Shown here in pieces: positions 633 through 49,151 of a stretch of 64,000 nt of DNA. The translations under genes and the position numbers were made by a program. Position 1 is the first letter of the stretch, and each line of letters opens with the position of its first letter. The DNA lies in assembly GCA_965219005.1 (NCBI GenBank), contig CBDCMS010000004.1, forward strand, positions 815,736 to 879,735. Reading direction: 5' to 3'. Origin of the DNA: Acidobacteriota bacterium. GTDB lineage: Bacteria; Acidobacteriota; UBA6911; RPQK01; JAJDTT01. The notes beneath the pieces were generated by a model that saw only the letters and a program-made list of their open reading frames with translations, searched no databases and was not told the origin of the DNA.

Positions 633-890
633 CAAGTTTCAGCTCAGTGGGGCCCCCAGTGGTGCTGGCCACATTCGAGAAAGAAACTTCAGTCGGGATA
701 GGGGAGATTCTGCTGTTGTCCAGCTCTCTCCTCGGAACTTGGGTTCCTATTGCCGAACGGTCAAGTCGTTCGCGGCTCTGCCGGATTTGGCTTCGCAATG
801 CTGGCAGTCTATTCGTACACGGCAACACCTCTTTCCGAACACTGTTCACTGCTCACTGCACTACTGCTCACTATTCAAGTTTCAGCTTAG
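633..890. repeat. Dispersed modular intergenic repeat, copy A
   Basis: Bounded by direct repeats CAAGTTTCAGCTYAG (633-647, 876-890). The core GCTGTTGTCC..CTCTCTCCTCGGAACTTGGG...GTCGTTCGCGGCTCTG and the ACTGTTCACTG-type short repeats align with 48934-49151. Confidence 0.75.
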
Positions 891-934
891 TCCCATCCCC
901 TCGCTTGCGCTTCAGGCTCCTATGGTTTTCGCAT

Positions 935-3900
935 TCATCGAGAGCCTGGACCTGTCACCGTCCTCTGCAACTCGGCCTGCCGGAGCACCCAGGCCCGGAT
1001 AGTCTGGTAGCCCGCATCGTCGGGCTGGTAGCGTCGGCCTCCTTGATGTCCTTCCTCCTGGGGGGTCTGCAGGTCCAGTGGTTTACGCAGGAACCTGCTT
1101 TCCTCCACCTCGTCCAGATTCACCCTCTCCTGCATCTTTCGATAGTTGGCCAGAAGCTCCGCCGGGGCGATGTAGCCGATGGCGTCAGGAGGGTTCAGAT
1201 ACAGGGTTGGCACCCGGCCCGGGACCCCATGACAAGAGATGCAGGCTCTCCCATCGCGCTTGCTGAGCCGCGTCATTTCGGCGAACACCTGGTCCCGGAA
1301 ATCGAGTATGTCCTGGATGAATACCGGCGAAGTCTCCACTCGCGGACCCTGTTGGAGATCGTCGCCGAGCAGGGAATCAATCAGCTTCTGAAGTTCTTCT
1401 CCGTACACCTCGTCGTCGCTGTTGAGGATGTTCTGGATCTGCTTGCGCAGTTCGGGCACTGTTTCTTCTTCCACGTAGTCCGCGAGTGTAGACCGGATGT
1501 CTGGGTTGCGTCGCAGTGTGGTCTTGTTGGCGAGCCTGATAACGGTCTTTCGATCCTTCTCCCGGGTCCGTGGAGAGAACCAGCCAAGAAACATCTGGAC
1601 GACTTGGTGCTTGGTCTGGGTCAGAGGGTCCACCACCTTGATTCCCTGTTCGTTCTCGGTCAGGAGGGAGCCTCGGGCCTGGTCCGGAACTGCTGCCAGG
1701 TAGTCGAGACCGAAAATATAAAGCCGTTCGGCCTCGGGTTGGGCACCCAGCATCCGGATGGTGAGGAGGTTCTTCCCTTCCTGGAATTGATGGACGCCCA
1801 GAGAAACGGGGCCGGTAGGTGTCTGGTCGGGTCGGTACCCCTCCATCTGCTCCACGATCGTTTTCCCATTGAGGGAGAGCGATACATCACCCACATCTCG
1901 GTCATATAGGAAGGCTGCCACCAGTTCGTGAGGACCCGCCTTCTCAACCGGAATCGCGAAGGTAAGGGTCGCTCCCGGAAGTCCTTCTCTCCACCAGAGG
2001 ATGGTGTTCTTGCTGGTGAGGCCGTTGGGGACTATCTGCTCGGTGGTTCTTCCGGCCGTTAGCTCAACCAGCTCCAGGTCTTCCGCTTCGGTGGCTCCCT
2101 CGAGGGCTTGTTCCTGGTTCAGGTCTCTTTCCTGAAACCCAAGCATCCACTCGGTTGAGGGAAGCCAGAATCGGGGAAGCTCGTCCACGAAATCAAAGAC
2201 CAGCTTGCGCTGGAGCGTGGAGTTTTCTCCTAGGATCTGTCCCAGGAGCGTCTCCCTCAGCTCGTCCGTGGTTTCTGTGTACTCCGGCTCTTGGCTCAGG
2301 ATAGGGCGGAAAAGGACGCTGCCCTTGGATGAGGGCCCCTGGCTGGTGGCTCTGATTTAGGGAACCAGCAGGCGGTAGAACTTCTTTTCTCCCCGCTCAT
2401 CCACACCATCGAAGTTCCATTGGATCCTGGCCAGGAAGTTGGTCAAAGCCTGCGCGTCCTCCTGGCGATCCCTTTCCAGGAACGCCCCTAGCTTGGCCAG
2501 AAAAGGCTTGAGGGTCTCAACCGAAGCAGGAAGTGAAAGAGTCCGTGGATTGGACAGAGCTCGGGACGCTGCCGCTACCAGGTCGAGATCTCCGGTCATC
2601 AGGAGGTTAAGCATCTCCTTCTGAAGGGGTGGGTAGCTGGTGTTGGCAGCTGCCTCCAGAGACAGCTGGTCCCAAGGGACCCCAGATCCATCCTCTCCCA
2701 GATGGTAGGTCGCTAGGATGGATCGGCCTACCACTTCGGTGCTTCCTGAGGTGCTGTAGCCGAGTTGGCCGGGTCCACCATCACCGGCGCGCTCCAGGAA
2801 ATGAGTCCCAGCCACAGCCGTAAGTCCCCGGTCCAGCCGCTTCCGGTTTGGGGGCGAAGCAGAAGCGCGTCGCTGGGCTAGCTCTGCGTAGAAGCGGGCT
2901 AGCTCCGGATATTGTTGATCTATGCTCTCGCCTCCGGTCTGATTGGCAATCTGACCGTTGACGATCAGAAGAGACGCGGTGGAGTAGCGGAAAGCCATCT
3001 CTGCCAGCCGCTCGTTCTCTCCCTGGAGCAGGGAGTCGATCCAGGCCCGATTGATGCCGTCGCGCAGGGGAGGATTCCAGACCCACCAGTGCCAAGCCGC
3101 CTTGTGGGCCCAGGCCCGCACGCCTGCGAAAGGATCCTGCATTCCTGCAGAGAGGACATCACCAAGCCGGGATACGGCAGGGCTGCCCGAACCCACGAGA
3201 TCCGCCCGGGTCACCAGGGCCTGCTGGACGGACTGACGTGCCAGCTCGCTTCCGCTTCTGAAGGCCTCCAGGGTCTCGTCCCAGCCCACTCCGTCCAGCA
3301 TCAGTTGCCTCAGGGACCAGAACGCCGCCTCCCGGCAGGACTTGACGGGATCGTCGAGGTGCTCGATCAGGGCCGCGAGACCCTCTGGAGCCAGGGCCCC
3401 TCCAAGACCCAGCAGGGCGTAGTAGCGGATCTGGGGATGGGGGCTGTCGGCTTCCGCGATCATGAGGCGCGCTAATTCCTTGTTGCCGGTTGCTTGCAAG
3501 CGTCGCAAACGCGAGAGCGTGTCGAGGAAGCCCTCCCCAGGCGAAGCTTTCAGCTCCAGTGCACTGGCACGTTTTCGTACCTCGGGGAAGAGTTGGCCCA
3601 ACGCTCGAATCGCATAGGCGGTGGTCACGAAGCCGGTCTGGGCAGCTTTGTTCCAGAGGCCGTAGGGAAATTGATTGGCCATCAACCAGCCCACGGCCCG
3701 CTTTAGGACCGGATCTTCGGCGGTACGGCCGGCGGAGTGGAGGGCAATCAGGGCGACGGCGGTGGGGGCAGCATCTCCCGTCTCCTGCACTCGTCTCCAT
3801 GTCTTTCCCTCGTCCCCAGTCAGCCCCGGTTCAAATCCCCAGCTTCCATCTTCCTGCTGCAGGGCTAGCAGGCGTTGCAGGTCCCTTTGGACCTGGGCCT

Positions 3901-5743
3901 CGAACAGCTTCTGAAACTCTTGCGCCTCGCGGACGCGCTCCTCGTCTTCGGTTAGATGTGCGACCACCTCGGGGTAGTTCCGGGGCCAGAGGCGATGAAA
4001 AAATTCGATCCGGTGGCCCAGGTCATCGCTGACTTTGATCTTGTCATCGCCGGTGTCGACGATCCTTTTTGCCTTCTCCTCCAGACCGAAAAAGTACTTG
4101 GGATCTTCGGTATCCTTCCAAGCCCGGTGCAGGATCTCACCCGCAAACTTGAAGACTACGTTGGGACCGAAGTTGGACCCTCGACCAGCAGCGTTGATGC
4201 CCTTGGGGTCATCGGTCTGGAGGACATAGTTGGCCGTGCGGCGCTGCTGGTAGCGATGGAGTTTCTTGGGACGAAAGGCCCGTTCGTGTAGGACGATGTT
4301 GCGCCCCGCCACGCGGCTCCCAGCCGGGCCATCCCCGAGGTCGTTCGGAGGAAGGCTCGTGTTGACCGCCGCATCCTGCAGCTTTACGGTGGGGCGCAGA
4401 CTTTCGTACATCGTGTTGACCAGGCGGCGCCAGTTCTGTACGGTGCCGTCTGGCCAGTAACCGTTGCGGAAGGCGTCGGCCACTCCCCAGACGCCGGCCT
4501 GGGTGTGACAGCTCATGCAGTTCTCGCCAAACAGACTGGTGCCGTCCCGGACCCGGCGGTGGAGTGCAATGTTTCGGGGCCGATGGATCAGCCAGGCGTC
4601 TACCTGGGCCAGGTGGTAGTAGATGGCGTGCCGCAGGGCTCGCCGTGGGTCGTTGTAGGGAGCCGGCTTTACTAGCCGCAACTCGAGCTCGTAGGCCGGC
4701 TGATTGGCCTCTACCCTTAGAAAGTAGACCCCTCCCGGTTCCAGCTCACGGGTGACAAAAGAGCGAAAGTTCCTGTCCTGCTGGTGGATCCGCTCATTGA
4801 TGTCGCGGCCCTCGTAGTAGCTGAACACGGGGACGGGTCCGGGGATGACCTCGACCAGCGGATGGACGTAGGGGACCTGGGCATTGTTACCCACCTGTTT
4901 GATATCTGGGACCTCCGAAGGTCCGAGCTCTTCTGGTGTGGGCACGCCCAGCCGATACACCCTCAAGCGGGCACTGACGATCGGTTCCACCATCTGGAGA
5001 TTGGCTGTGAGAACCCGGGGCTGCCTTCCCCGGTGTTCAACGCGGAACCAGTCGTCCGGAGAGGCGCCGGAGCGGGTGTTGTTGTAGTACTCCAGATCGT
5101 CGGCACCACCCACAACCCGGATCACCTGGTCCTGGTCCGTGTCCTCAAAGGGCACCAGAACGGCTTGCTCGGGCGTGTTGTTGGGCTCGGCTTCCAGCAG
5201 GAGATCTCCCTTGGAAATCGCGGGAACAGAGGTGACGGATACCCTGATCGGAAGCTGGCTCACCTGGGGGGTTCGAACCGGCAGAGAGGTGGCCCGTTGG
5301 GCCAGACCGGTGTCGCGCCAGATCTTGCCCAGGGGTTGGGAGCGGTCTGTCACGGTTTCCAGGTTGAGGTGGTAGGGGCCAGCCGTGGGGGCCCTGTAGA
5401 CCAGATGCAGGTCCGGGTCCAGCGCATGCAGCGTCTTCTCCCACCCGGTCGAAGCTTTGGCGTCGAGGTCTCCTCGCTTCCCATCGAAAGCCAGATCAGG
5501 AAGATCGGGTCCCCGCCAACGTACCTCGATGCGGGCATTGGGAGGAAGAGAGGAGGGTTCGGGGATGCCCACCGACATCTGAAGGATCTGGTCCCGCTGG
5601 AGTTGCCACTGACGCTCCCAACTGCCTTCGAAAACAACCCACTTCTGGAAGTCGAACGCTCGGTTCCTAGCCAGCTGCGAAGCTCCCAGGCCGATCGCCA
5701 TGAAAGCACAGGCTGGCAGCAGTAATATCCTTCGGCCCGTCAC
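935..5743 (-). pseudogene. Giant exported multidomain protein (PPC-like EPNN domain, CxxCH, QW/prenyltransferase-like repeats, HEAT repeats, CBM-like domain, C-terminal CxxCH), interrupted by one in-frame TAA at 2357-2359
   Basis: ORFs 2357..5743 and 935..2188 are in the same frame (gap 168 nt) and the gap translates openly after the TAA (IRATSQG...LVFDFVDEL). Signal peptide; motifs CMSCH, QQEDGSW, QFPYGLW, CISCHG...KPL...HQGG. Confidence 0.75.
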
Positions 5744-5844
5744 TCAAAATTCCCCGTTAGCGCTTCGAGCAGCGTGAGATCGTAGATTAGATGATAGCCC
5801 CGTTTTTCAAATTCTTCCATGAGGAAAGTTGAGCTGTTGTCCAT
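5740..5844 (-). CDS. Possible 34-aa small ORF translationally coupled to the giant gene
   Basis: AGGAGAGAG directly before ATG; MDNSSTFLMEEFEKRGYHLIYDLTLLEALTGNFE; its TGA overlaps the GTG start at 5743. Confidence 0.35.
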   Translation of the reverse strand: MDNSSTFLMEEFEKRGYHLIYDLTLLEALTGNFE

Positions 5845-5942
5845 CTCTCTCCTGGTGATAGCATTCACGCTAGCTGTTGTGCTGTCGCACCCACCATCGG
5901 GGTCTATCAATGGCTGCGTCTCAGTAGTAGACTGACGGGAAG

Positions 5943-7046
5943 ATGGAGCGACAAAAGCTCGTCTGTGTTGGGATTGTTGTCGTCGCCCTGGGGGCGGTGC
6001 TCGCCCAACAACAGGACCACCAGTCTCGCTACCAATACCACTCAGGAGAGATTTCCATTCCGCCCGCATCGGAAACCGAGCCGTTCCTGCTGGAGTTCTC
6101 TCCTGCCCGAGCCGTCGCCTATATGGAAGAAGGGGCTACGGCCTGGACTCGGGAACGCAAATGTCTGTCCTGTCACACCAACGCCACTTACATGGTCACT
6201 CGCCCGGCGCTGACCAGCAGCCTGGGAAGGCCGTCGGAGGAGCTTCGTGCCTTTGCCATTCAGCAGTTGACTGAATTTCAATCGACCGATCTCGAGAAAC
6301 TCAGGTCGGGCATCAGACCGACCCAGGTGGCCTATCTGGCCCAGGGTATGGCTGAATGGGACGCCCACGTCACCGGCAAGCTCTCTGCCGAAACCGAGGA
6401 CGCTTTGGATTTGATGCTCCAGGTTCAAGGGGAAAGCGGCGACTGGGGCAACACCGATGCATGGCCGCCTTTCGAGTCGAGCAACTATCACTCCACCACG
6501 GTGGCGGCGCTGGCGATGGCCACGGCTCCGGGATGGTTGGCGGTGCGAGCCAAGGACGAGGCCGTAGAGAAGGTGAAAAACTACCTTAAAGGGGGTGCGC
6601 CCCACGACTATGGTCGGCTGCTCCTTCTCTGGGTGGCGACGCGTTGGCCTGGGTTGCTTGACGAGGATGTGAAGCAGAAGTTGATCGCGAACGTCTGGCG
6701 ACATCAGCGAAAAGACGGAGGATGGTCCATTCGTACCTTTTCTTCTCCCGACAAATGGGGAAGGGGCAATCGTGCCGAGAAGCTTCGGGCCGAGGACGAG
6801 TTCCAGAATCCTCCCAGTGACGGTCACCAGACAGGCCTCTGTTTATTGGTGCTGAGGCAGGCTGGGGTTCCGGCAGCCGATCCTCGACTCCAGCGGGCTG
6901 TGAAGTGGCTGTTGAGCCACCAGAGAGAGTCGGGCCGTTGGTGGACACGGTCCCTCAATACCGACAAGTTCCACTTCATCACCTACAGCGGCACCTGTTA
7001 CCCGCTCCTGGCCCTGGACAGCTGCGGGCTGCTCGAAGCCATGTAA
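5943..7046 (+). CDS. Exported prenyltransferase/squalene-cyclase-fold protein with a CxxCH motif
   Basis: Signal peptide (VCVGIVVVALGAVLA), CLSCHT, and QW-type repeats QGESGDW, QRKDGGW, QRESGRW; no DxDD cyclase motif. Confidence 0.85.
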   Translation: MERQKLVCVGIVVVALGAVLAQQQDHQSRYQYHSGEISIPPASETEPFLLEFSPARAVAYMEEGATAWTRERKCLSCHTNATYMVTRPALTSSLGRPSEELRAFAIQQLTEFQSTDLEKLRSGIRPTQVAYLAQGMAEWDAHVTGKLSAETEDALDLMLQVQGESGDWGNTDAWPPFESSNYHSTTVAALAMATAPGWLAVRAKDEAVEKVKNYLKGGAPHDYGRLLLLWVATRWPGLLDEDVKQKLIANVWRHQRKDGGWSIRTFSSPDKWGRGNRAEKLRAEDEFQNPPSDGHQTGLCLLVLRQAGVPAADPRLQRAVKWLLSHQRESGRWWTRSLNTDKFHFITYSGTCYPLLALDSCGLLEAM

Positions 7047-7106
7047 CCCTGGGTCAAATTCGGTCTTGTAGCTTCATCGGGGTTATTGCAGTCCGGGAAG
7101 GTCTTG

Positions 7107-7210
7107 GCAATAACGCTTACAGCGTAGAGACTGAAATGGGTATGACTAGACCCAGGGTAGCTCGCTTCGCATCGCAACCCTGGGCTACACGCAGTAACGC
7201 CTTCGGCGTA
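7107..7210. repeat. REP-like palindromic element
   Basis: CCCAGGGT...ACCCTGGG inverted repeat (7151-7184) between two related short hairpins, GCAATAACGCTTACAGCGTA and GCAGTAACGCCTTCGGCGTA. Confidence 0.55.
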
Positions 7211-7235
7211 TGTGATAGGCCCACTGATCCACGTA

Positions 7236-7325
7236 AAGTTTCTTTCCTGTACGATCCAGCGCAGTCGGTGGCGTCGCTAAACTGAAAGTTCATTCGCTAA
7301 CGTGGCTTCGGTCTCCAGGCCGAAG
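7236..7325 (-). repeat. Dispersed modular repeat, copy B (inverted)
   Basis: Its reverse complement contains CTTCGGCCTGGAGACCGAAGCCACG, TGAACTTTCAGTTTAG and GGATCGTACAGGAAAGAAACTT, matching 48778-48948. Confidence 0.7.
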
Positions 7326-7502
7326 GTCTAATCGCGAAATATCGCAGTTGGCAACCGTCGAATCACAAACCGCAGACGTCGAACGTGCGAGGTGTGAAGG
7401 GCAGAATCGCGGCCTTTCTTCGCGCAGAAGCCCCGCGACGTCGATCTAGTCAATTTAAACTTGCCGACGCTCGGGGCGTGATTGTGTACTATCGGTAGGG
7501 CC

Positions 7503-8837
7503 ATGGACGAAAGATCGGGCACGGCGGTATCATTGGCAGCTTCTTCCAAGATTCCCCTCTTCCCAGTCCTGCTGGTGAATTTCATCGGGTCTCTCGGTTT
7601 TAGCATCGTATTGCCCTTCCTTGTGTTCGTCGTCCTGAAGTTCGGAGGCAACCCCGTCGTCTATGGACTGGTAGGAGCCACATATCCGGCTCTCCAGCTT
7701 CTGGGCGCACCGATTCTTGGCCGCTGGTCGGATCGCTACGGCCGAAAGAGGATCCTGCTGATCAGCCAGATAGGAACACTGATTTCCTGGGTCATCTTCG
7801 CAGCTGCCCTGTTTCTTCCTCGGACCATCCTCGCGAGTGTCGAGTCTTCCCTGTTGGGCAGTTTCACCCTGACGCTTCCGTTGGCGTTGGTCTTTGTAGC
7901 CCGAGCTCTGGACGGTCTCACGGGTGGCAACGTCTCGGTTGCAAATGCCTACGTGGCTGACATCACGTCGGAAGAGGAACGCAGCCAGAGTTTCGGCCGC
8001 ATGGGTGTAGCCTCGAATCTGGGATTCATCGTTGGTCCGGCCCTGGCAGCGTTACTGGGAGCGACGGCCCAGGGTGAGAGTCTCCCCATTTTTGCAGCTC
8101 TTCTGATTTCGCTCGTGGCCGCCGTTCTGATTGCGGTCCGGTTGCCGGAGTCGAACCCCTGTGCTCTCGAGCACGGCCCCGAGGTAGCCGACCTGAACCG
8201 GGTATTCGGGCACGAACACAAGGACTGTGTTGAGTTTCAGGACGGCGATGAAGCCAAGCTCAAGGACGCATTGGACAGACCGGGCATGGTATCCATCCTG
8301 GCGCTCTATTTCGTGGTGTTCCTTGGATTCAACTTCTTCTACACGACATTCCCGGTGCATGCAGCCGGAGTCCTCAGCTGGACGGTCATCGATACCGGCG
8401 TGTTTTTTGCTACTCTCAGCTTTTTCCTGGTGTTGGTACAAGGACCCGTTCTGGAACGGCTTTCCAAAGTAGTCTCGGAGGATCGACTGATCCTCGTTGG
8501 CAGTCTGGTTCTGGGCAGTAACTTTCTGCTGATGCTGTCACACGATGCTGGCGTCATCTACATGGCGGCCGTTCTCTTTGCTGTGGGCAACGGAATCATG
8601 TGGCCTTCGGTACTGTCGTCGCTCTCGAAACTAGCTGGAGAGCGATATCAAGGTGTGGTGCAAGGCTTTGCCGGTGGAATCGGTGGACTCGCCAGCGTCC
8701 TCGGTCTCATCCTCGGCGGTCTCCTCTACGAAAGAATCGGAGGGTTGACCTTCGCGGTATCGGCGGGACTCATCTATCTGAGCTCCGTGATTTCCCTACG
8801 GCTACTCTCGCCTGCCAAGCGCGCAAGAAAGCAATGA
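7503..8837 (+). CDS. MFS transporter (TetA/DHA1-like)
   Basis: About 12 hydrophobic helices, motif A GRWSDRYGRKR, ARALDGLTGGN and motif C GFIVGPALAALLG; ATG 7503 preferred over the upstream GTG. Confidence 0.9.
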   Translation: MDERSGTAVSLAASSKIPLFPVLLVNFIGSLGFSIVLPFLVFVVLKFGGNPVVYGLVGATYPALQLLGAPILGRWSDRYGRKRILLISQIGTLISWVIFAAALFLPRTILASVESSLLGSFTLTLPLALVFVARALDGLTGGNVSVANAYVADITSEEERSQSFGRMGVASNLGFIVGPALAALLGATAQGESLPIFAALLISLVAAVLIAVRLPESNPCALEHGPEVADLNRVFGHEHKDCVEFQDGDEAKLKDALDRPGMVSILALYFVVFLGFNFFYTTFPVHAAGVLSWTVIDTGVFFATLSFFLVLVQGPVLERLSKVVSEDRLILVGSLVLGSNFLLMLSHDAGVIYMAAVLFAVGNGIMWPSVLSSLSKLAGERYQGVVQGFAGGIGGLASVLGLILGGLLYERIGGLTFAVSAGLIYLSSVISLRLLSPAKRARKQ

Positions 8838-12805: not shown

Positions 12806-12821
12806 ATTTCAGATGGTCTGC

Positions 12822-14292: not shown

Positions 14293-16170
14293 ATGAGAGA
14301 GAGAATTATCTTGTCAGCTCTAGTGATGGTGGTGGTCCTCGTGATCGGGATGGGCTCACCTGACGGCCTCCTTTGGGCTGGGAAGGGAACCCGCACCGCG
14401 GTTCGGGGACTGCGTGGAGCTGTGACGGCCGGGCACCCTCTGGTGGCAGATGTGGGGATGGAGATCTTCAAGCGGGGGGGCAACGCCGTGGATTCTGGCG
14501 TGGCCATGTTGCTAGCGGCCTCTGTTGTTGAGTTCAACTCCTTCGGGTTCGGAGGGGAGATGCCGACTCTCATCTACTCGCCCCGAGAACGGCGTGTGGT
14601 AGCCGTCAACGGCAATACCCGGGCTCCCAAGGCGGCCAGCATCGGCTGGTTTCGGGAGCAGGGATACACGCTCATCCCGGCGGATGGATTCATGCCGGCG
14701 GGTGTGTGCGCAGTGCCAGCAGCCATTGTGCTCAGTCTGGAGCGCTATGGTACGCTTTCCTTCTCTGAGATTGTCCAGGGTGCCATTCGGTTGGCAGAGG
14801 GATTCCCTGTGGACGCACGCTGGCGAAAGTACGTCGGGAGGAAGGAAACGGCGAAGTATCGGGGACCCAAGACCTTCCGTACGGAGTGGCCCAGTTCGGC
14901 CGCCGTGCTGCTCCACGACGGCAGGGTGCCGGGAGTGGGAGAGGTCACTCGCAACCCGGACCTGGCCGGCACCTTTCGACGCCTGGCGAAAGCGGAGAAG
15001 GACATCTTGAAGAAAGGCGGTGACCGGAAATCGGCACTCAGGGCGGTTCACGACTATTTCTACAAAGGCCCAATCGCCCAGGAGTTGGTCGAGTTTTCCC
15101 AGGGGTTCAAGGTTCGTGACGGTGAGGACGGCTACCATCACGGCCTTCTGACAATCGAGGATTTCGCCGATTACGAGGCCAGGATCCAGGAGCCCTGGAG
15201 CATCGACTACCGGGGCTATCAGGTCTACAAGTGCGGACCCTGGACCCAGGGGCCTGTATTCCTCCAGCAACTCGCCTTGCTGGAAGGCTACGATCTTGCC
15301 TCCCTGGGACACAACAGCGCCGACTACCTGCACCTCTGGCTGGAGACGGCCAAACTGGCTCACGCCGATAAGGAGAAGTACTACGGCGATCCCGACTTCG
15401 TGTATGTTCCGCGCCAGGGTCTACTGTCCAAGGGGTACGCCAAGTTGAGGAGGCAGCTCCTCGATTGGACGAAAGCCTCCCTGGATCTGCGTCCAGGAGA
15501 TCCTTTCCCCTTTGATGCCCATCCCGAGAAACGGCCGTCCAATCTGAGTCTGGCTCCTGTCGAGCCCGGGTTGAAAGATGACGGTACCACCGGCGTCCGT
15601 GCGGTGGACTCTCACGGGACCATCTTCTCCTCTACACCCAGCGGCGGGTGGCCAGCCTCCTCACCTATTGTCCCGGGACTGGGCTTCTGCCTTGGCAGCC
15701 GAGTCCAGATGTTCTATCTGGAGGAGGGACTGGCCAAGTCCCTGGCCCCGGGCAAACAGCCTTCCACCAGCCTCACCCCTAGCCTGGTCATGAAGGACGG
15801 TCGCCCCTGGATGGGTTTCGGCATGCCGGGAGGAGATCAACAGGATCAGGGAACGCTTCAGTTCTTCCTGAACGTGGTGGACTTCGACATGCGATTGCAG
15901 GACGCGCTGGATGCCCCCAAGGTCTGGACCAAGCATTTTCCCGGTCTCTTCTATCCCCACAAGGCGGACCCCGGCCGAGCCTTCCTGGAAGGGCGACTCG
16001 CCAACCTGGAGGAGATCGCTGTTGATCTGCGCCAACGGGGTCACAAGATCACGGTGGCCAATCCCTGGAGTGGCGACAACACCATGGTGGTGATGATTGA
16101 TCCCAGGACGGGCACCCTGGTGGCGGCAACCAATCCACGCATGGAGGGCAGCACGGCGCTCGCCTGGTAG
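14293..16170 (+). CDS. ggt: Gamma-glutamyltransferase family protein
   Basis: GGNAVDSGVA, GFGGE, autoproteolytic GTT..AVD nucleophile region, PGKQP..SLTP, GMPGGDQQ. Confidence 0.92.
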   Translation: MRERIILSALVMVVVLVIGMGSPDGLLWAGKGTRTAVRGLRGAVTAGHPLVADVGMEIFKRGGNAVDSGVAMLLAASVVEFNSFGFGGEMPTLIYSPRERRVVAVNGNTRAPKAASIGWFREQGYTLIPADGFMPAGVCAVPAAIVLSLERYGTLSFSEIVQGAIRLAEGFPVDARWRKYVGRKETAKYRGPKTFRTEWPSSAAVLLHDGRVPGVGEVTRNPDLAGTFRRLAKAEKDILKKGGDRKSALRAVHDYFYKGPIAQELVEFSQGFKVRDGEDGYHHGLLTIEDFADYEARIQEPWSIDYRGYQVYKCGPWTQGPVFLQQLALLEGYDLASLGHNSADYLHLWLETAKLAHADKEKYYGDPDFVYVPRQGLLSKGYAKLRRQLLDWTKASLDLRPGDPFPFDAHPEKRPSNLSLAPVEPGLKDDGTTGVRAVDSHGTIFSSTPSGGWPASSPIVPGLGFCLGSRVQMFYLEEGLAKSLAPGKQPSTSLTPSLVMKDGRPWMGFGMPGGDQQDQGTLQFFLNVVDFDMRLQDALDAPKVWTKHFPGLFYPHKADPGRAFLEGRLANLEEIAVDLRQRGHKITVANPWSGDNTMVVMIDPRTGTLVAATNPRMEGSTALAW

Positions 16171-16226
16171 GAGGAACCCCCTATTCTCGGGGCTTCGCTT
16201 GGAGTGTCAAGGTTGGGGAGACTGCA

Positions 16227-16292
16227 CTGTTGTCCGACTCTCTCCTCGGAACGTGGGCTCATGTTGCAGACGAGTAAAGTCGTTCGCGGCTC
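16227..16292. repeat. Dispersed modular repeat, copy C (core only)
   Basis: CTGTTGTCCGACTCTCTCCTCGGAACGTGGGCTCATGTTG...AAGTCGTTCGCGGCTC matches the cores in copies A and D. Confidence 0.7.
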
Positions 16293-16467
16293 CGTGGACT
16301 TGGTTTGCTTTCCGGCAGTTCTGGTCTTTGTCGTTCTCTTTGACCGCAAACGATCGCGCCGTTGCCCTTGGCTTAGACCATAGGGTCATGCGGCTTTGGT
16401 ACGATCTGCGGAATCGTCCTGGTCCAGGCGCTGGGATTTCGCACCTACTCAGATCCGGAGGCTATCA

Positions 16468-22877: not shown

Positions 22878-22951
22878 CTGGTTATGATGCCGGTAAGTCT
22901 GTGATGTACGGTGGGGTTTGGCGAAAATAGAGGAAGTCGGTTGATCTCGAT

Positions 22952-23533
22952 CTACCCGGCTTGCCCGCAGGCGAGGGTCAACTCCAGGAGCTTGAGCGTC
23001 GTCTTCCAGTTCCGGAAGGTACTCGGGGTCCCCAGCTTGGAGTCGAAGTAGGTGTTGGTCAGCTTTGATCGTGCAAGGCCGTGGGGACACTTGAGGTAGA
23101 CCTCACGGCCTTGGACAACAAACTCGTCGGGCCGTGAGCGCCGAGGGTCCAAGCCAGCGATCCTGTCGGTGCTGGGTCGGCTGGCTAGGAAGGCGACGTG
23201 CAGTTCTCGATCATCGCCGCCGCCTCGTAGGAACGGATTGGTACGGACGATTTTGCCGAGCTCCTGGGCGGTACGTGTGATGAAGGGTGTTTCCCAGCCG
23301 AAGCGCCTGGAAATGTCCTGCACGATATCGGCGCTTATCCGGGAAACCTCACTTGTTTCCGCCTCGTAGATGACATTGCCACTCTGGATGTACGTCTGAA
23401 CCTGTCTGGCACCCGCGTCTTCGAAGATCGAGACGAGATTCTCCATCGGCAGTCTGTGTCGGCCGCCGACGTTGATGCCACGCAAGAGCGTGATCTGGAC
23501 CGTTGGCGCCTGGGGCTTTTTCGGTGCGGCCAT
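22952..23533 (-). CDS. DUF1697 family protein, copy 1
   Basis: LLRGINVGG, VQTYIQSGNV, TFRNWKT; near-identical to 42924..43505. Confidence 0.88.
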   Translation of the reverse strand: MAAPKKPQAPTVQITLLRGINVGGRHRLPMENLVSIFEDAGARQVQTYIQSGNVIYEAETSEVSRISADIVQDISRRFGWETPFITRTAQELGKIVRTNPFLRGGGDDRELHVAFLASRPSTDRIAGLDPRRSRPDEFVVQGREVYLKCPHGLARSKLTNTYFDSKLGTPSTFRNWKTTLKLLELTLACGQAG

Positions 23534-23671
23534 TCTCAAGTCAAGGCTTCGCCGACCGGCTAGTCCTGACCTTCCGGATTCTCTCGCTCTGTGCTCTCTG
23601 TCGCACCACTCTCCCGAGAACTGCGAATTGAGCAACTTAAATTGGAAGCCGGAAGAATCCCGGGAGGAATC

Positions 23672-40437: not shown

Positions 40438-41215
40438 ATCCGTTCAGCCACGCCACTAGTACTGCTGGAATGGAAAACCTGAATCGCCAGTGCCTGAGCG
40501 GCCCTCGAGCGCCCCTACTCAGCCAAACTGAAGGAGTAGAACCAGGGCCTCCTCGGCCGGCACGACTCCCCTACACTCTGCCAGGAGAAGCAACACCATG
40601 ACTCTCAACAGACCAGGAATCCTACTCATCGTTCGCCTTCCTTCTGGGAGATGCGCAGCTGGCACCATCGGGCTCCAGAGCTCGTGAGACTCACCGCACT
40701 GAGTATCGACAAACCGTTCGTTATTATGAGCAAATCTTTGTGCATAAAATAGAATTTATAGTCTGAGTATATCTCGAAGGACATCGTCCCTCTCAGCCGG
40801 GCTCGGGCGGTAGAATCGGCCCATATTTCCCCGATTTTTCGAGAAATAGAACAACTATGCCCCTCAAAATCGAGAAAATCTGGCCTCGATTCCCCGCTTT
40901 CTCGCTACGATCGTTTCTACCGCGCAGACTCCGCACTTTGGTCGAGGTTCAGGACAGGCTCGGGCTGCGACGGTTCTACAGCCAGCTGGGTCAGGACAAG
41001 AGGTTGACGAAATCAATAGGACTTTCCTTTTGGATTGAGTTCTAGGAGAGAGGGTAGAAACACCCGAAAGGAGCCCAAAAGGGGCTGAAATGAGGTGGAT
41101 GGGGAAATCGAAGGGGATCCACAGGGTTGAGATCGTGTAACGGGGGTGGGAGCGGAGGCGGGGCGATGCCAAAGGGCCAGTCGGGAGGAAAAACAGACAC
41201 AAGGATATGGCAAGC

Positions 41216-41247
41216 CCCCACTGAAGAGCTCGAGCTCTTCAGTGGGG
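41216..41247. repeat. Perfect 32-bp loopless palindrome over the transposase stop codon
   Basis: CCCCACTGAAGAGCTC|GAGCTCTTCAGTGGGG. Confidence 0.9.
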
Positions 41248-42594
41248 CCAATCCGGAACCTCGTCCCAGAACAGCGAGTCGTCGGAGGCTCGAACGGCTT
41301 GAGCCTGCTGGGGGGAAAGTTCCGCCAGAAAGTGTTCCAGCTTCTGCGGAAACAACCGGGGTGGGGGCGCCCGTTGCGGCCCTTGCCCCAGCTTCAAATG
41401 CGCCAGAATCCGGCGGATCACATGAGGCTGCTCGATCACCGCGATCACGCGCAGAGAGCTGCCGCAACCACAGCGCAAGGGATCGACGTCATAGATCTTG
41501 CGGAGCAGACGAGCCCAGCTACGACGGCGCCTGAAGCGCTCGGCCGCGGACTCCTCCTCGACGGAGCGGTCCTCGGAGAGCGGGCCGTGGACGGCTTTCT
41601 GCTGCTGCCGTCGTTTCCCACGTGAGGCGCTAGCGTAACGGCCATAGTAACGGATTTGGTGCTCATTTCGATCGGGGATATGCGAGCAGACCCGGGCCCT
41701 CCAGTCCAAGGCATCCAGCGACTGCAGCGTCCCCTTGCCGGTGCGGTAGAGGATCTGGCCGCGATCGCTCTGATAGTCGAGGCGGGAGGCGGCGAAACTG
41801 GGACGTCGAATGTAGGCGGCCAGACGCTCCAGAGCCGGGCGATCCTCGGGGGGAACACCTCGAGAGGAGTAGACCCCGAATCCGGAGGGAGACCAGGCGC
41901 GCAACTTCTGGGCGAACTCCGGACTGAGTCGATGCTGCTGGACCATCATCTCCAAGACCCGGTGTTGGAACAGGCGGCTGAGTAAAGAGGAGTCGAAGCC
42001 GCCGATCGAGACCCCACGGCCGTCCCCATTCCAGGCCGTGTCGCTGACCAGCCCATGGAGGTGAGCGTGAGGTCGCAAGTTGTCGCCCCAGGTCTGGGTG
42101 GTCAGGATGGCCCCCGGAACCGAGCCGGGCCCCAAGCGGCTTTGGACATAGTCCCGGAGACTGGCCCAGGCGCAGCGGCAGAGCTCTCCCAAGAGCTTTC
42201 GGTCTTTGTAGAAGGCCGGACGCAGGACCCTCGGAATCGTCCACACCAGCTGCCGGTGGTCGACCTCCTCGAGCACCTCCTCCAGCACCTGTTCCAGGAA
42301 AGCAGCCACCTGCTTGGCTTGGCAACTCGGACAAAAACAGCGCGTTTTGCATGAAAATGCCAACAACTGCTCCCGTCGACAGTCGGAGCAGCGCAGGCGG
42401 GCGAATCCATGACGAAGGATCCCACATTGGAGGAAACGTTCGACGGTTTTCTCCACCACCGGACGCCAGGGCCCATAGTCTCTCTCGTAGAAGTAGGGAT
42501 AGGCCTCCTTGAACTCTTCCCAGTAGTCCTCCAGACACTGGTAGAAGGCGGTGTGCTCGGGATGACGGGGCCGGTAGGTGCCAGCGAGGGGCAT
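41239..42594 (-). CDS. IS91-family HUH transposase (zinc-binding domain + Y2_Tnp-like domain)
   Basis: CGILRHGFARLRCSDC...FSCKTRCFCPSC, HUH PHAHLH, RLAAYIRRP, IRYYGRY, CGCG...IRRILAHL...RAPP. Confidence 0.92.
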   Translation of the reverse strand: MPLAGTYRPRHPEHTAFYQCLEDYWEEFKEAYPYFYERDYGPWRPVVEKTVERFLQCGILRHGFARLRCSDCRREQLLAFSCKTRCFCPSCQAKQVAAFLEQVLEEVLEEVDHRQLVWTIPRVLRPAFYKDRKLLGELCRCAWASLRDYVQSRLGPGSVPGAILTTQTWGDNLRPHAHLHGLVSDTAWNGDGRGVSIGGFDSSLLSRLFQHRVLEMMVQQHRLSPEFAQKLRAWSPSGFGVYSSRGVPPEDRPALERLAAYIRRPSFAASRLDYQSDRGQILYRTGKGTLQSLDALDWRARVCSHIPDRNEHQIRYYGRYASASRGKRRQQQKAVHGPLSEDRSVEEESAAERFRRRRSWARLLRKIYDVDPLRCGCGSSLRVIAVIEQPHVIRRILAHLKLGQGPQRAPPPRLFPQKLEHFLAELSPQQAQAVRASDDSLFWDEVPDWPH

Positions 42595-42923
42595 GCCCTA
42601 CCGGAAACGTTTGCCGAAGCGAATCTACGGAGGATTCTCTACTCCATGAGCGTCAGGATCAAGTTTCCATATCCTCTTCGCCGACATCGGGAACGCCTGC
42701 CGAATGACGATTGCCGACCTGGACGCCGACCGGAAAAGCGAAGCCGTCCGTCTGCGTCCCGGATCAGCTCAGAGTCCTCTTTTTACACGGAGGTACGGAT
42801 GCTCCTTACAGGGTAGGACGGTAGTTTCATGGCCATCCAGGATATAGGGTGCTAGACCGTCACTGAGCTTACAGCACGTTCACCACCGCTCATTGAAATC
42901 AGAGGAAGCCGGTTGATCTTGAT

Positions 42924-43505
42924 CTACCCGGCTTGCCCGCAGGCGAGGGTCAACTCCAGGAGCTTGAGCGTCGTCTTCCAGTTCCGGAAGGTACTTGGGG
43001 TCCCCAGCTTGGAGTCGAAGTAGGTGTTGGTCAGCTTTGATCGTGTAAGGCCGTGGGGACACTTGAGGTAGACCTCACGGCCTTGGACAACAAACTCGTC
43101 GGGCCGTGAGCGCCGAGGGTCCAAGCCAGCGATCCTGTCGCTGCTGGGTCGGCTGGCTAGGAAGGCGACGTGCAGTTCTCGATCATCGCCGCCGCCTCGT
43201 AGGAACGGATTGGTACGGACGATTTTGCCGAGCTCCTGGGCGGTACGTGTGATGACGGGTGTTTCCCAGCCGAAGCGCCTGGAAATGTCCTGCACGATAT
43301 CGGCGCTTATCCGGGAAACCTCACTTGTTTCCGCCTCGTAGATGACATTGCCACTCTGGATGTACGTCTGAACCTGTCTGGCACCCGCGTCTTCGAAGAT
43401 CGAGACGAGATTCTCCATCGGCAGTCTGTGTCGGCCGCCGACGTTGATTCCACGCAAGAGCGTGATCTGGACCGTTGGCGCCTGGGGCTTTTTCGGTGCG
43501 GCCAT
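42924..43505 (-). CDS. DUF1697 family protein, copy 2
   Basis: Same 582-nt length as 22952..23533; three amino-acid differences seen (PVIT/PFIT, PSSD/PSTD, LTRS/LARS). Confidence 0.88.
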   Translation of the reverse strand: MAAPKKPQAPTVQITLLRGINVGGRHRLPMENLVSIFEDAGARQVQTYIQSGNVIYEAETSEVSRISADIVQDISRRFGWETPVITRTAQELGKIVRTNPFLRGGGDDRELHVAFLASRPSSDRIAGLDPRRSRPDEFVVQGREVYLKCPHGLTRSKLTNTYFDSKLGTPSTFRNWKTTLKLLELTLACGQAG

Positions 43506-43531
43506 TCTCAAGTCAAGGCTTCGCCGACCGG

Positions 43532-44590: not shown

Positions 44591-44689
44591 GAACTTTTGA
44601 TCGCAGATCTAAAAGAGTCCCTGTCATTGTGCAAGAGATCGAGTCCCAAGTACATCTGGCGTGAAGAGGTCGCAATTTCCACTTCTCGC

Positions 44690-44737
44690 TTGACAAGGGC
44701 GATGAGATTTATTGAAATTGAAATTCAATTTCAATAA
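44690..44737 (+). promoter_or_regulatory. Sigma70 promoter with an overlapping Fur-like palindromic operator
   Basis: TTGACA at 44690-44695; perfect 13-3-13 inverted repeat TTATTGAAATTGA-AAT-TCAATTTCAATAA (44709-44737) upstream of porin-feoAB. Confidence 0.75.
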
Positions 44738-44772
44738 GGCCCTGGGCCGCTGGTCCTGGCTGAGTTGATTTT

Positions 44773-44916
44773 GAGGAGAGAGTTGCTGAGGGGGGATCCG
44801 CCGGCCGTGTCGGCGCAGCCCTTGGCTTTTGGGGCCCTCGAGAGAAGGCCGACCTTCAGTACATGGCTCCCATGGCAGTCGGCAAGCGGGAGCCGCTCCA
44901 AGCGCCCCGAGGAGGA
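44773..44916 (+). promoter_or_regulatory. Structured 5' leader, candidate metal-sensing riboswitch (yybP-ykoY-like features)
   Basis: GGAG-AGAGTT-GC start, branched hairpin, GCCGAC/GTCGGC stem enclosing TCAGTAC + ATGG/CCAT, and a CTCC able to pair with either the 5' GGAG or the SD GGAG. Confidence 0.35.
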
Positions 44917-44920
44917 TTGT

Positions 44921-46348: not shown

Positions 46349-46433
46349 CGGACTCGTTCTTGTTGTCGCTAGACTATGGGGGACGAATGAGAGTTAATGG
46401 TTAGCGCATCTTCGCTCCAGGACTGAAACGCCT

Positions 46434-46691
46434 ATGCCCCCGCTCACGCTTGATGATCTAGTTAAGGGCGAAGAAGGGATCCTCGATTCCATCGAGCTGC
46501 CGGAAGCAGAGAGCCGCCGACTGATGGAGCTGGGATTCTTGCCGGGCACCTTGGTTGCCGCAGCCGGCCGCTCGCCTTTTGGCGATCCACGCATCTTCCG
46601 CGTCGATGGCTCAGAGGTTGCGCTGCGTCGTGAGACCGCCGCCCGCCTGATGCTTCGTCCATCCCAAGCGATTCCCGAGAAGGATTCATGA
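46434..46691 (+). CDS. feoA: Ferrous iron transport protein A
   Basis: RLMELGFLPG, SPFGDP, VDGSEVALRRETA. Confidence 0.92.
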   Translation: MPPLTLDDLVKGEEGILDSIELPEAESRRLMELGFLPGTLVAAAGRSPFGDPRIFRVDGSEVALRRETAARLMLRPSQAIPEKDS

Positions 46692-48580
46692 GCCAGCGCC
46701 AGCCTGAGGTCGTGGAGTTTGGTGCCACCTCGGCAACTCGGCAGCCGGCTTCGGGCGGCGTTCGTACGGTAGCCGTTGTGGGTCCACCCAACGCGGGCAA
46801 GTCTACACTCTTCAATCGCCTCACCGGACTGCGTCAGAAGGTGGCCAACTACCCTGGCGTGACGGTAGAGAAGAGAGTAGGACAGGCCCGTCTCTCCGGT
46901 AGCGTGGAAGTCGAACTGGTCGATCTGCCGGGGATCTACAGTCTGAAGCCGATGTCAGAGGATGAACGGGTCGCCCATGATGTTCTGACGGGTCGTATGG
47001 CGGGAGTCTCCCCTCCCGATGCCATCGTCCTCATTCTCGACTCCACGAATCTGGGGCGTCACCTCAGTTTCGCCGCACCCATTCTCAGCTTGGGAGTGCC
47101 GACTCTGGTGGTTCTCAACATGGCAGATGATCTTCGAAGGCGGGGCGGGAATCTCGAACTTGACAAGCTCGCAGATCGTCTTGGAGCTCCCGTCGCCTTG
47201 ATCAGTGCCCGAACTGGCGAGGGAGTTCCTGCCGTCGAAGAGTTTCTGGAGGGGGCCCTGGGTGTCCCAAATCCGGTGGAACTCCCGGTTATTCAGGATA
47301 TTCCCAAGTGCCGCGAATGGTCAGCCCGGGTTGGAATTGAAGCAGATTACGCTGCGCCGGCTCCGCCCCTTTGGACGCGGCGCCTGGACGCCCTCTTTCT
47401 CCATCCGCTGGCTGGTCCGCTTATCTTCGGGATCTTGGTGGTTGCGGTGTTCCAGACGGTGTTCACGGTGGCCGTACCCCTGATGGATGGGGTGGATGCC
47501 GCCGTTTCGACTTCCGGCAGTTGGCTGAACTCTCTGCTGCCCGATTCCTGGTTTCGGAGCCTCCTGATCGAAGGTGTGTGGGGCGGGGTGGGTTCGGTCG
47601 TGGTTTTTCTGCCCCAGATCCTTCTTCTCTTTATCTTCATTGGGGTTCTGGAGGATTCGGGCTATATGGCCCGGGCCGCCCTGATCGCGGACCGTACCAT
47701 GAGGAACGTGGGACTGCAGGGGAAATCCTTCATTCCGCTGCTTTCGGCCTATGCCTGCGCCGTCCCCGCCATAATGGCCACTCGGACCATCGAGAGCAAA
47801 CGTGATCGTATGGCTACCATCCTGATCGCGCCCTTCATGACTTGCTCGGCGAGGCTGCCGGTCTACACGCTGGTGATTGCGGCGTTTATCCCCGAACAGC
47901 CGCTACTGGGTGGAATTCTCGGTACCCGTGCGGTGACGATGCTGGGCCTATATCTGCTCGGTTTCCTGGCGGCGTTTTTCACGGCCTGGGCTCTCAAGTC
48001 GTCCGTCTTGCGCAGCGGTGGCTCCTCTTTCGTACTGGAGATGCCTCCCTACCGATTACCAAGCCTACGGTCCCTGGGCCTTCGTCTATTCGATCGTGCC
48101 CGTATCTTCTTGAGGCGCGCTGGGACCGTGATCATGGCCACCAGCATCATCTTGTGGATTCTGGCCAGCTTGCCGCTCCAGGATGGCGAACCTCCTCCCA
48201 TAGCTGAGAGTGTCGTTGGGACGGTGGGTCGCACCATAGAGCCCGTCATTGAACCCCTGGGGTTCAATTGGAGAATTGGCGTTGGACTCATCACCTCACT
48301 TGCGGCTCGGGAAGTCATCGTCGGAACTCTGGGCACCCTCTACGGGATGGAGGAGGATGAGGGCTCGCGTGATTTGCAAGAGGCTCTGAAAAGCGAATTA
48401 GACCTGGGTGGGGCCGTGGCCCTTCTGGTGTTCTTCGCCTTCGCTATGCAGTGCATGTCCACGGTAGCAGTCGTGCGGAGGGAGACGGGAAGCTGGAAGT
48501 GGCCTGTGATCCAGTTTGCCTACATGACCTTGCTAGCCTATGTCGCAGCGTTTTTCGCAAACGCGCTGATCCGCACATGA
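46688..48580 (+). CDS. feoB: Ferrous iron transport protein B
   Basis: G1 GPPNAGKST, G2 NYPGVTVE, G3 DLPG, G4 NMAD, gate motifs CAVPAIMATR, MTCSARLPVY, QCMST; ATGA overlap with feoA. Confidence 0.95.
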   Translation: MSQRQPEVVEFGATSATRQPASGGVRTVAVVGPPNAGKSTLFNRLTGLRQKVANYPGVTVEKRVGQARLSGSVEVELVDLPGIYSLKPMSEDERVAHDVLTGRMAGVSPPDAIVLILDSTNLGRHLSFAAPILSLGVPTLVVLNMADDLRRRGGNLELDKLADRLGAPVALISARTGEGVPAVEEFLEGALGVPNPVELPVIQDIPKCREWSARVGIEADYAAPAPPLWTRRLDALFLHPLAGPLIFGILVVAVFQTVFTVAVPLMDGVDAAVSTSGSWLNSLLPDSWFRSLLIEGVWGGVGSVVVFLPQILLLFIFIGVLEDSGYMARAALIADRTMRNVGLQGKSFIPLLSAYACAVPAIMATRTIESKRDRMATILIAPFMTCSARLPVYTLVIAAFIPEQPLLGGILGTRAVTMLGLYLLGFLAAFFTAWALKSSVLRSGGSSFVLEMPPYRLPSLRSLGLRLFDRARIFLRRAGTVIMATSIILWILASLPLQDGEPPPIAESVVGTVGRTIEPVIEPLGFNWRIGVGLITSLAAREVIVGTLGTLYGMEEDEGSRDLQEALKSELDLGGAVALLVFFAFAMQCMSTVAVVRRETGSWKWPVIQFAYMTLLAYVAAFFANALIRT

Positions 48581-48624
48581 CGGCTAAGGGGGTGGAAGTC
48601 AGTTAAAAGGATAATAAACTGGCG

Positions 48625-49151
48625 TCGTCCTCGACTGCCGGAACCTGGGCTCATGTTGACAACGGGTCGTTCGCGGCTCTGTCGGATCGCCAAGGGTTGA
48701 TGATCGGCGATCGTTTGGAACTTGGTGCTTGTGATTTGGAGCTTGTTTGTATCTTGTTTCTTGTATCTTGGGATTTTCAAGTTTCAGCTTAGCACCGGCT
48801 CCGGCTGCGCCGGATCGTACAGGAAAGAAACTTCAGTCGAGGAACGTATTGGTGGTCTCCGTACCGCCGTGTTCTTTCGTTCGAGCCTTTGGCTCGAAGC
48901 CAGAACTTCGGCCTGGAGACCGAAGCCACGTTTGAAGTTTCAGGTTAGCCCCGCCCCCAGCGATGCTGGCCCCATTCGAGAACGGAACTTTTCGGGGTCA
49001 ACAGAGATCTTGCTGTTGTCCGGCTCTCTCCTCGGAACTTGGGCTCATCTTGCAGGCAAGTCAAGTCGTTCGCGGCTCTGTTGCCTGCAGCTGTTTCCGG
49101 TACTGTTCACTGATCACTTCATCACTGTTCACTATTCAAGTTTCAGCTTAG
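48625..49151. repeat. Tandem cluster of three modular repeat units (copy D)
   Basis: Units end in CAAGTTTCAGCTTAG (48778-48792), GAAGTTTCAGGTTAG (48934-48948) and CAAGTTTCAGCTTAG (49137-49151); lies between convergent feoB and oxidoreductase genes. Confidence 0.8.

Follow-up and report, generated by a model that had tools for sequence, protein, structure and literature searches.

Small head-to-tail repeat units of marine and sponge-associated Acidobacteriota are dispersed mobile elements connected through a shared repeat with a Y1 HUH transposase homologue

We analysed a 64,000-nucleotide (nt) stretch of an Acidobacteriota genome (contig CBDCMS010000004.1, hereafter the window) in which four intergenic loci, A to D, are built from recurring sequence modules. 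The evidence leans towards these loci being copies and fragments of a family of small, non-coding, orientation-specific mobile elements, for which mobilisation by an HUH enzyme is the leading inference. As far as a literature search shows, this abundant family is undescribed; it falls within the world of repetitive extragenic palindromes (REPs), bacterial interspersed mosaic elements (BIMEs), TIRtrons and IS200-like elements and is not a new kind of system. For wider comparison about 1.8 Mb of loci from relatives and metagenomes were used, picked by pattern, protein orthology or relatedness; single loci of this set are numbered with the prefix L.

All units were found to share one grammar, consisting of (N)TYAG, a head, variable cargo, short tandem heptamer repeats and a tail, with CCCATTCGAGAAAGAAACTT in the head and TTCAAGTTTCAG-CTTAG in the tail. 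The head of about 45 nt begins with a GC-rich part of about 20 nt, often forming an imperfect hairpin of 4-5 bp, which is followed by the near-invariant CCCATTCGAGAAAGAAACTT or, in type 2, by GGATCGTACAGGAAAGAAACTT. The tail has the consensus (T/A)T(C/G)AAGTTTCAG(C/G)T(T/C)AG and is conserved over exactly 17 nt, upstream of which conservation stops abruptly. From head to tail the units measured 65-520 nt (mode 150-250 nt). Head and tail are unrelated in sequence, thus the units lack terminal inverted repeats (TIRs), and their arrays are direct, head to tail. No open reading frame (ORF) was enclosed by any copy, and no autonomous copy was seen when all head-to-tail spans longer than 420 nt were inspected; two spans of about 1,075 nt were one locus in two samples, containing nested repeats and no credible ORF. 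Where the left flank of a unit was something other than a tail, the left and right 4-mers were equal in only 13 of 73 cases. We concluded that the flanking TYAGs are not a target duplication of 4 nt.

A preliminary description of the window had reported the four loci as interchangeable modules, arranged in differing order and joined at a fixed 15-mer, CAAGTTTCAGCTTAG. Self-comparison of the window confirmed the loci and the named modules, and allowing at most 2 mismatches the 15-mer occurred five times against 0.03 expected, a count that was reached in 0 of 100 shuffles. The GGATCGTACAGGAAAGAAACTT block and the CTTCGG hairpin were likewise common to 7236-7329 and 48779-48932, in inverted orientation. 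The differing module order was not upheld, as the one order given above applies to every unit; the apparent difference arose because one array, locus B, had been read upside down and across a unit boundary. Some exchange of modules is real, but its joint is not the 15-mer; between units that are otherwise near-identical, the first ~20 nt of the head are swapped.

The units are mobile, have been dispersed to unrelated sites and show turnover at orthologous ones. We searched for pairs of units with an identity of 93% or more across 90% or more of the length but with unrelated distal flanks on both sides. Among 167 distinct complete units 58 such pairs were found, core-less units included (the core being an 80-nt repeat that many units carry as cargo). 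At one orthologous spacer, between feoB and a GFO gene (FeoB 95-96% identical), the window has three units, L211 and L212 only the three-hairpin unit and L210 a different set. The extra core-type unit of the window lies exactly between the TTAG of the resident tail and the conserved right flank (CCTTCCGCCC in the window, TCTTTCCGCCC in L211); empty sites for head-tail units are inferred across species. An exact look-up of the GFO and FeoB proteins of the window gave no record. From the dispersal of the 58 pairs and the differing contents of the feoB spacer we concluded that the units move. In L219, additionally, a unit directly follows the last sense codon of the HUH gene treated below, ahead of its TGA, and supplies a new TAG; the orthologues in L215 and L222 have no unit. 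The earlier proposal of non-autonomous mobile DNA is thereby supported, and neither chance nor gene remnants explain the loci.

Heads were preceded by NTYAG also where an upstream tail was missing. Non-tail-like sequence, sometimes TYAG alone, stood before 93 of 213 heads. In 47 of these 93 flanks it ended in TCAG or TTAG, of which the AG was fixed by how the boundary was drawn and is hence present in all flanks, and CAGGTCAG was frequent. The landing TYAG was often found within CAG(G/C)TYAG. As non-tail flanks often carry CAGGTCAG, the preferred landing site is similar to the final 8 nt of the tail. The 15-mer, which had been singled out as a possible recombination or cleavage site, coincides with the element boundary and the insertion point; it would be the 3' terminus of the element as well as its preferred landing site.

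An HUH gene is tied to the repeat complex via the core. A motif scan of ORFs revealed one 176-aa ORF in L128 with an HvH motif; the gene is otherwise 174 aa long, low-copy and partly syntenic. Searched alone, the L128 protein had no match in Pfam (including Y1_Tnp), in NCBIfam or among PDB sequences. A profile search collected 3,256 representative clusters of relatives (E up to 0.001), and 46 of 50 sampled relatives matched Pfam Y1_Tnp (PF01797). The AlphaFold (AF2) model, computed from a seven-sequence alignment, had the order beta-alpha-beta-beta-alpha-beta-alpha with a predicted local distance difference test (pLDDT) of 60 and a predicted template modelling score (pTM) of 0.64. Compared with the PDB, 24 of its 25 top matches, including all of ranks 1-22, were TnpA of IS200, IS608 or ISDra2 and the E. 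coli RAYT 4ER8. The family profile aligns HvHvv to HIHLF, the HUH strand of the IS200 transposase 2F4F; H98 was invariant, and H100 and the putative catalytic residue Y158 were at least 90% conserved. Judged by fold and profile, the 174-aa protein is a divergent Y1 HUH (IS200/RAYT-like) transposase homologue. Homologues 72-78% identical were present on multi-Mb contigs, which marks the gene as conserved, and only one such gene was found in the 1.8 Mb of repeat-selected DNA.

Inverted copies of the core bracket the gene in every orthologue. The arms measure 72-73 nt, are 89% complementary and lie 631-642 nt apart in L215 and L222, and inverted core pairs were found at the transposase gene only. 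Two gene neighbourhoods were observed, BNR/Ldh_2 and MauE/peptidase M14, the latter common to deep-sea and sponge lineages, and the homology between the two contexts stops exactly at the outer core ends. In another organism a homologue with 36% identity lies between 25-nt inverted repeats, GAGCCGCGACCGTGAGGGAGCG, which resemble the outer end of the core (GAGCCGCGAACGAC) and the arms of the nested palindrome found as cargo. The preliminary description had recommended looking for RAYT or TnpA genes near intact copies; the Y1 HUH gene found is placed between inverted cores, not between heads and tails. A family of Y1_Tnp-like proteins of about 170 aa (P0121-P0127 and relatives) shares the N-terminal motif YLITFxCYGTxLHGDxRGSVDR, and its members nearest to the window fall below Pfam/NCBIfam detection. 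The reverse complement of the core (TTGACT...GAGGAGAGAG) was seen 20-110 nt upstream of ORF starts in the window (5744-5942, minus strand), in L088:4870-5115 and at the Y1 gene, and it may double as a promoter or leader module.

Other candidate partners were tried and rejected. The window contains a Y2 transposase gene of the IS91 family (41239-42594, minus strand; Zn_Tnp_IS91 and Y2_Tnp) with a palindrome at 41199-41264; no similarity to head, tail or core was found in its flanks. Multi-copy ORF families near arrays turned out to be ordinary paralogues (DUF1501, PSD1, GFO and others) and not transposases; DUF1501 and PSD1/PSCyt are part of the gene content of the window, which at first pointed to a planctomycete.

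The family is widespread and abundant. Copies beyond the window had been anticipated, and modules were found to recur in at least six Acidobacteriota metagenome-assembled genomes (MAGs) and in deep-sea metagenomes; genuine matches came from Acidobacteriota MAGs, one of them labelled UBA6911, and from deep-sea and sponge metagenomes. The exact 17-mer TTCAAGTTTCAGCTTAG was present at 35 loci in six Acidobacteriota MAGs, and about 30 single matches in unrelated phyla correspond to the number expected by chance. A 19-mer of the head matched at least 120 metagenome stretches, and the core gave 123-131 matches in the sampled loci and four in the window. In sponge metagenomes containing the window, the repeats reached a summed contig depth 200-300 times that of flanking single-copy genes. 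Unit density in marine and sponge-symbiont Acidobacteriota was roughly one per 7-15 kb. In viral contigs the 15-mer gave single chance matches only, and a literature search with a 14-mer returned nothing relevant.

Arrays were concentrated at gene ends: of the 119 that could be classified, 105 touch one or more gene 3' ends, and about half of the terminal tails overlap with a convergent ORF at its end. The loci had been placed just downstream of stop codons, which is roughly right. Locus C starts directly 3' of the TAG stop (16168-16170) of a gamma-glutamyltranspeptidase gene, and the tails of loci A and D lie 44 nt and 27 nt, respectively, from convergent gene stops. Frame-specific targeting of stop codons was considered and rejected: of 87 terminal tails, 17 had a TAA that terminated a convergent ORF of 100 aa or longer, about as many as the 11 and 15 in the other two frames. 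The arrays nevertheless do lie close to gene ends. As TTAG/CTAA holds stop codons on both strands, copies in such places are tolerated and a stop can be regenerated.

Cargo was unrelated between subfamilies. The three-hairpin type has a 13-bp inverted repeat with some compensatory changes, and other cargo comprises a nested palindrome with ACAGAGCCGTGAC... arms that is polymorphic between two near-identical contigs. In one of two 98%-identical contigs (L163:2790-2945 against L199:729-735) a unit contained a REPIN-like palindrome of about 160 nt with ACAGAGCCGTGACTGCAAAGGAGCGG arms; these arms resemble the inverted repeats around a distant Y1 homologue in L225. Unit pairs that were 96-97% identical internally had only 65-83% identity in their first 20 nt and 85% in the last 5 nt, and hairpin classes assorted with cargo subfamilies in a near-random manner (chi-square p = 0.12). 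We tried the GC hairpin as a separate REP-like target and rejected it, since the hairpin was never found apart from the rest of the head; it is thus not an independent target and would be a module exchanged at the conserved 20-nt block. Integron attC sites were also rejected on inspection, as the GTTRRRY and RYYYAAC boxes do not fit.

The features of the window are collected in Table 1. The truncated unit of locus D has a full-length form in L089, 97.6% identical across the 127 nt in common, and the three-hairpin unit of that locus is orthologous to the sole unit in the same spacer of L211 and L212. The heptamers of unit A1 (CACTGCT-type) differ in repeat number from the orthologous copy in L088:1-72, as microsatellites do, and positions 964-7044 of the window are about 86% identical to the orthologous DNA of L088.

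Table 1. Repeat units, their parts and a neighbouring element in the window (positions counted from its first nucleotide).
Feature	Position	Strand	Remarks
15-mer CAAGTTTCAGCTTAG, at most 2 mismatches	633, 876, 48778, 48934, 49137	+	start positions
15-mer, sixth copy, 3 mismatches	7277-7291	-	inverted
Core copies	706-788, 16221-16301, 48639-48687, 49006-49087		48639-48687 partial
Locus A, orphan tail ATCAAGTTTCAGCTCAG	631-647	+	gives the TYAG preceding unit A1; probably remnant of an earlier unit
Locus A, complete core-type unit A1	648-890	+	head 648-695, core 706-788, heptamers 841-873, tail 874-890
Core remnant, 21 nt	5833-5853	+	full core at the orthologous site of the relative L088
Locus B, type-2 head GGATCGTACAGGAAAGAAACTT of next unit	7231-7276	-	truncated by GTAG-tagged REP-like palindrome 7107-7230
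Locus B, tail variant GAACTTTCAGTTTAG	7291-7277	-	
Locus B, 3' part of three-hairpin-type unit	7277-7329	-	CTTCGG...CCGAAG arm 7299-7325
Locus C, decayed core-type unit	16171-16301	+	degenerate head, no tail
Locus D, 5'-truncated core-type unit	48625-48792	+	half core, TTGTATC repeats, tail 48776-48792
Locus D, complete three-hairpin-type unit	48793-48948	+	type-2 head, tail TGAAGTTTCAGGTTAG
Locus D, complete core-type unit	48949-49151	+	directly after TTAG of preceding tail; absent in L211/L212 spacer
Separate miniature inverted-repeat transposable element (MITE), TIRs of ~31 nt CTTCGACATTCGCCTGTTCGATATTCTGCGG	495-616	.	neighbour, not a family member; fragment 7351-7376

An HUH enzyme, either the 174-aa protein or a relative, would cut the units and move them in single-stranded form, much as in IS200/IS605, a group whose elements insert 3' of a short target without duplicating it. 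We favour this mechanism because the units have asymmetric ends, insert 3' of a short sequence without duplication and have a hairpin beside TYAG, and because an HUH system is tied to the complex. Since the 3' end of a unit would recreate the landing sequence, later copies would land beside earlier ones and build up head-to-tail arrays. Cargo would consist of other repeats gained by insertion, namely REPIN-like palindromes, the palindrome with the 13-bp stem and, most often, the 80-nt core, while the conserved 20-nt block of the head and the 17-nt tail may be the joints at which the 5' hairpin module is exchanged.

Several observations weigh against mobilisation by an HUH enzyme. The link of the 174-aa enzyme to head-tail mobility is indirect, because its gene has cores only, with no heads or tails as flanks, and many units are core-less; no autonomous element carrying head and tail was found in the ~1.8 Mb of loci. 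The ends of IS200/IS605 normally have hairpins on both sides. In the units a perfect stem of at least 4 bp was found in the 5' hairpin of 103 of 175 head variants against 58 expected from shuffles, so that by sequence the hairpin appears only partly conserved and an IS200/IS605-like left end weak, and upstream of the 17-nt tail neither a hairpin nor any conserved sequence or structure was detected. The core folded no better than its shuffles (z-scores -0.6 and +0.2 for the two strands). Array orientation showed no bias with respect to local GC skew, 65 being with it and 65 against. A target duplication of 2 nt (AG) may exist. Comparing empty and filled sites, as had been suggested, yielded the cross-species turnover at the feoB spacer, but near-identical contigs yielded no such pair for a head-tail unit within a population; of the three indels that they showed, one was a different, nested palindromic element and none a head-tail unit. 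An HUH enzyme thus remains a candidate only, though the leading one, for the activity that acts on the head-tail units.

A more far-reaching form of the HUH mechanism is put forward tentatively, and we doubt that it holds in full. It takes the head-tail units as an undescribed 'carrier' class of elements, free of TIRs and target duplication, that a Y1 HUH branch without a Pfam match here would move single-stranded. The carriers would assemble their own arrays, capture repeats and swap the 5' hairpin by strand exchange at the 20-nt block in each round, and regeneration of stops on either strand would let them saturate gene ends harmlessly.

The main alternative, which we regard as unlikely, is that small circles are integrated by a site-specific recombinase (tyrosine, serine or IS110-type DEDD) at an att-like tail, leaving a core of 8-17 nt on both sides and building arrays by repetition. 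The absence of inverted ends would fit, the tail-head junction within arrays resembles a circle junction, many arrays begin with an orphan tail (tail-head-tail), and the non-tail-like left flanks often retain CAGGTCAG. No recombinase gene recurs near arrays, however, and the 93 of 213 heads without a tail-like flank, some with TYAG alone, are not what this explanation leads one to expect. Some orphan tails also have extra upstream homology to the 3' regions of units, as 5'-truncated units would.

It is improbable that the units are functional structured RNAs or 3'-end/terminator signals kept at gene ends by selection, an alternative raised in the preliminary description and found to be weak. 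Most arrays do sit at gene 3' ends, and modules were present in sponge metatranscriptome contigs, with the module at 48710-48791 over-represented; these contigs may include DNA and carry no strand information. RNAalifold paired GAAACTT of the head with AAGTTTC of the tail, but the pairing was invariant, so the proposed covariation check gave no evidence of covariation. Arrays occur in both orientations, and in tandem gene contexts 43 were antisense and 21 sense, about twofold. Rfam gave no match at gathering score over the whole window, and searching up to E of 10 added only two chance-level matches to eukaryotic snoRNAs at E ~6. Fold z-scores of units against shuffles were -0.3 to -1.5, the cargo of the subfamilies is unrelated and unit content differs at orthologous sites.

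Spread by target-primed copying of RNA or by template switching, as in short interspersed nuclear elements, would produce constant 3' ends, 5' truncation and variable 5' ends, and we consider it very improbable. 5'-truncated copies with intact tails do exist (48625-48792; a remnant in L211), simple heptamer repeats stand just ahead of the 3' end, and identity drops to 65-83% in the first 20 nt of copies that are otherwise 96-97% identical. Against this, no reverse transcriptase was seen in any locus, and the 5' hairpin comes in a small number of conserved variants, unlike random filler. To our knowledge such copying has no bacterial precedent. A history in which an old repeat only recombined homologously, was duplicated and decayed, never being actively inserted, would account for the many fragmentary copies (C, D1, B) and for the free assortment of the 5' module with cargo types, but is hardly credible given the 58 near-identical pairs in unrelated flanks, the precise constant boundaries at TYAG and tail and the unit inserted exactly at a stop codon.

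The Y1 gene with its inverted cores is an arrangement of the TIRtron/TIRYT kind. TIRtrons were described as tyrosine transposase genes with long flanking inverted repeats (Di Nocera, De Gregorio and Rocco 2013, PMC3733652), and the same paper records an acidobacterial TIRYT group with sharp limits and calls TIR families 'moderately abundant'. Three TIRtron traits are found here as well: a low-copy Y1 HUH gene with an IS200-like fold, 72-nt inverted repeats in place of GTAG REPs around the gene in two genomic contexts, and a flanking repeat, the core, that belongs to a dispersed intergenic family. In contrast to TIRtrons, the protein has no Pfam Y1_Tnp match of its own, the core occurs mostly as single copies carried inside head-tail units, and with at least 131 copies in ~1.8 Mb it seems more abundant than the described TIR families.

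Resemblance to the REP/BIME and REPIN-RAYT systems of E. coli and Pseudomonas (PMC3116915, PMC5581495) is partial. The RAYT pattern is low-copy and vertically inherited (PMC5581495), and the Y1 gene is close to that. Abundant short extragenic repeats in mosaics with other motifs, a single-copy, vertically inherited HUH tyrosine transposase flanked by a repeat, and a 4-nt tag beside a hairpin (GTAG in REPs, TYAG in the units) are in common. The units are larger, however (150-250 nt against the 20-40 nt of REP palindromes), their arrays run head to tail and not in the alternating order of BIMEs or the inverted doublets of REPINs, and none of the best-conserved parts, namely the 17-nt tail, the head block of 20 nt and the core of 80 nt, is palindromic. 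An imperfect palindrome of 20-40 nt with a conserved 5' tetranucleotide, as in REPs, was not seen; only the head has a short stem by TYAG, in the 103 of 175 variants. Of the label 'REP/BIME-like, HUH-mobilised' in the preliminary description the HUH part gained a concrete candidate in a Y1 HUH homologue bracketed by inverted core, whereas the units are not REP-like palindromes, since the core folds no better than shuffles and the arrays are direct rather than alternating.

With IS200/IS605 and their non-autonomous derivatives, palindrome-associated transposable elements (PATEs), the units have in common asymmetric ends, no inverted repeats, no target duplication, and insertion in one orientation immediately 3' of a short specific sequence; the enzymes of that group are of the Y1 HUH family. 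In contrast to that group, the units have no right-end hairpin and a weak left one, the right end repeats the target and so gives tandem arrays, no strand bias was detected, and ~1.8 Mb of loci yielded no autonomous copy bearing such ends. MITEs of the DDE type (IS5/Harbinger/ISAzo13-type) in the same genomes are likewise small and non-coding, prefer TTAG/CTAG/CTAAG sites at gene ends and are found nested inside each other, but they have clear TIRs and target duplications and the head-tail units have neither.

Further repeats were recorded in the same DNA. The CTTCGACATTCGCCTGTTCGATATTCTGCGG MITE occurs as two tandem copies, each flanked by TTAG, in L073 (minus strand, ~2100-2450), and its sites thus seem to be of the kind that the head-tail units occupy. 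The GTAG-tagged REP-like palindrome that interrupts locus B, GTAGCCCAGGGTTGCGATGCGAAGCGAGCTACCCTGGGT, has flanking ACGC hairpins and is also found beside a unit in L041 (~7600-8000, minus strand); it is a classical-looking REP family and should have a RAYT of its own. A MITE-like element at 52742-53018, with 34-nt inverted ends that are 94% complementary and 209 nt apart, has copies 91-95% identical in L036, L073 and L047. In L210:12080-12330 a palindromic MITE, GGGTCTGTCAGGAAGTAACCGAT..., with CTAAG on both sides, was inserted at the TYAG-equivalent just before a head. A 2.1-kb insertion sequence (L211:17960-20060 against L212:17957) with a 591-aa ORF and a weak DDE_Tnp_1_4 match was present in one sample and absent in the other of the same species; it sits at CTAG, has clear inverted ends and is flanked by a CTAG duplication. 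Additionally, a direct repeat of 300 nt with 98% identity (22923-23222 and 42895-43194) overlaps a pair of DUF1697 paralogues (22952-23635 and 42924-43511) in their 3' parts, and the IS91-like gene adjoins one of the two.

The density of these repeats affects assembly, binning and gene-end annotation of MAGs of uncultured marine and sponge-symbiont Acidobacteriota, which also contain several further families of small repeats that prefer these TTAG/CTAG-type sites. The picture drawn from REP/RAYT and TIRtron systems would be extended by the family in two ways, by a transposase homologue that Pfam and NCBIfam alone miss, though it has more than 3,000 representative clusters of relatives, and by a cognate repeat that is mostly cargo in a second type of element, whose 17-nt end doubles as a landing site. 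If it is true that an HUH enzyme moves the carriers, they would offer a simple test system for recognition in which the target equals the end, and would show how mosaic BIME-like arrays originate.

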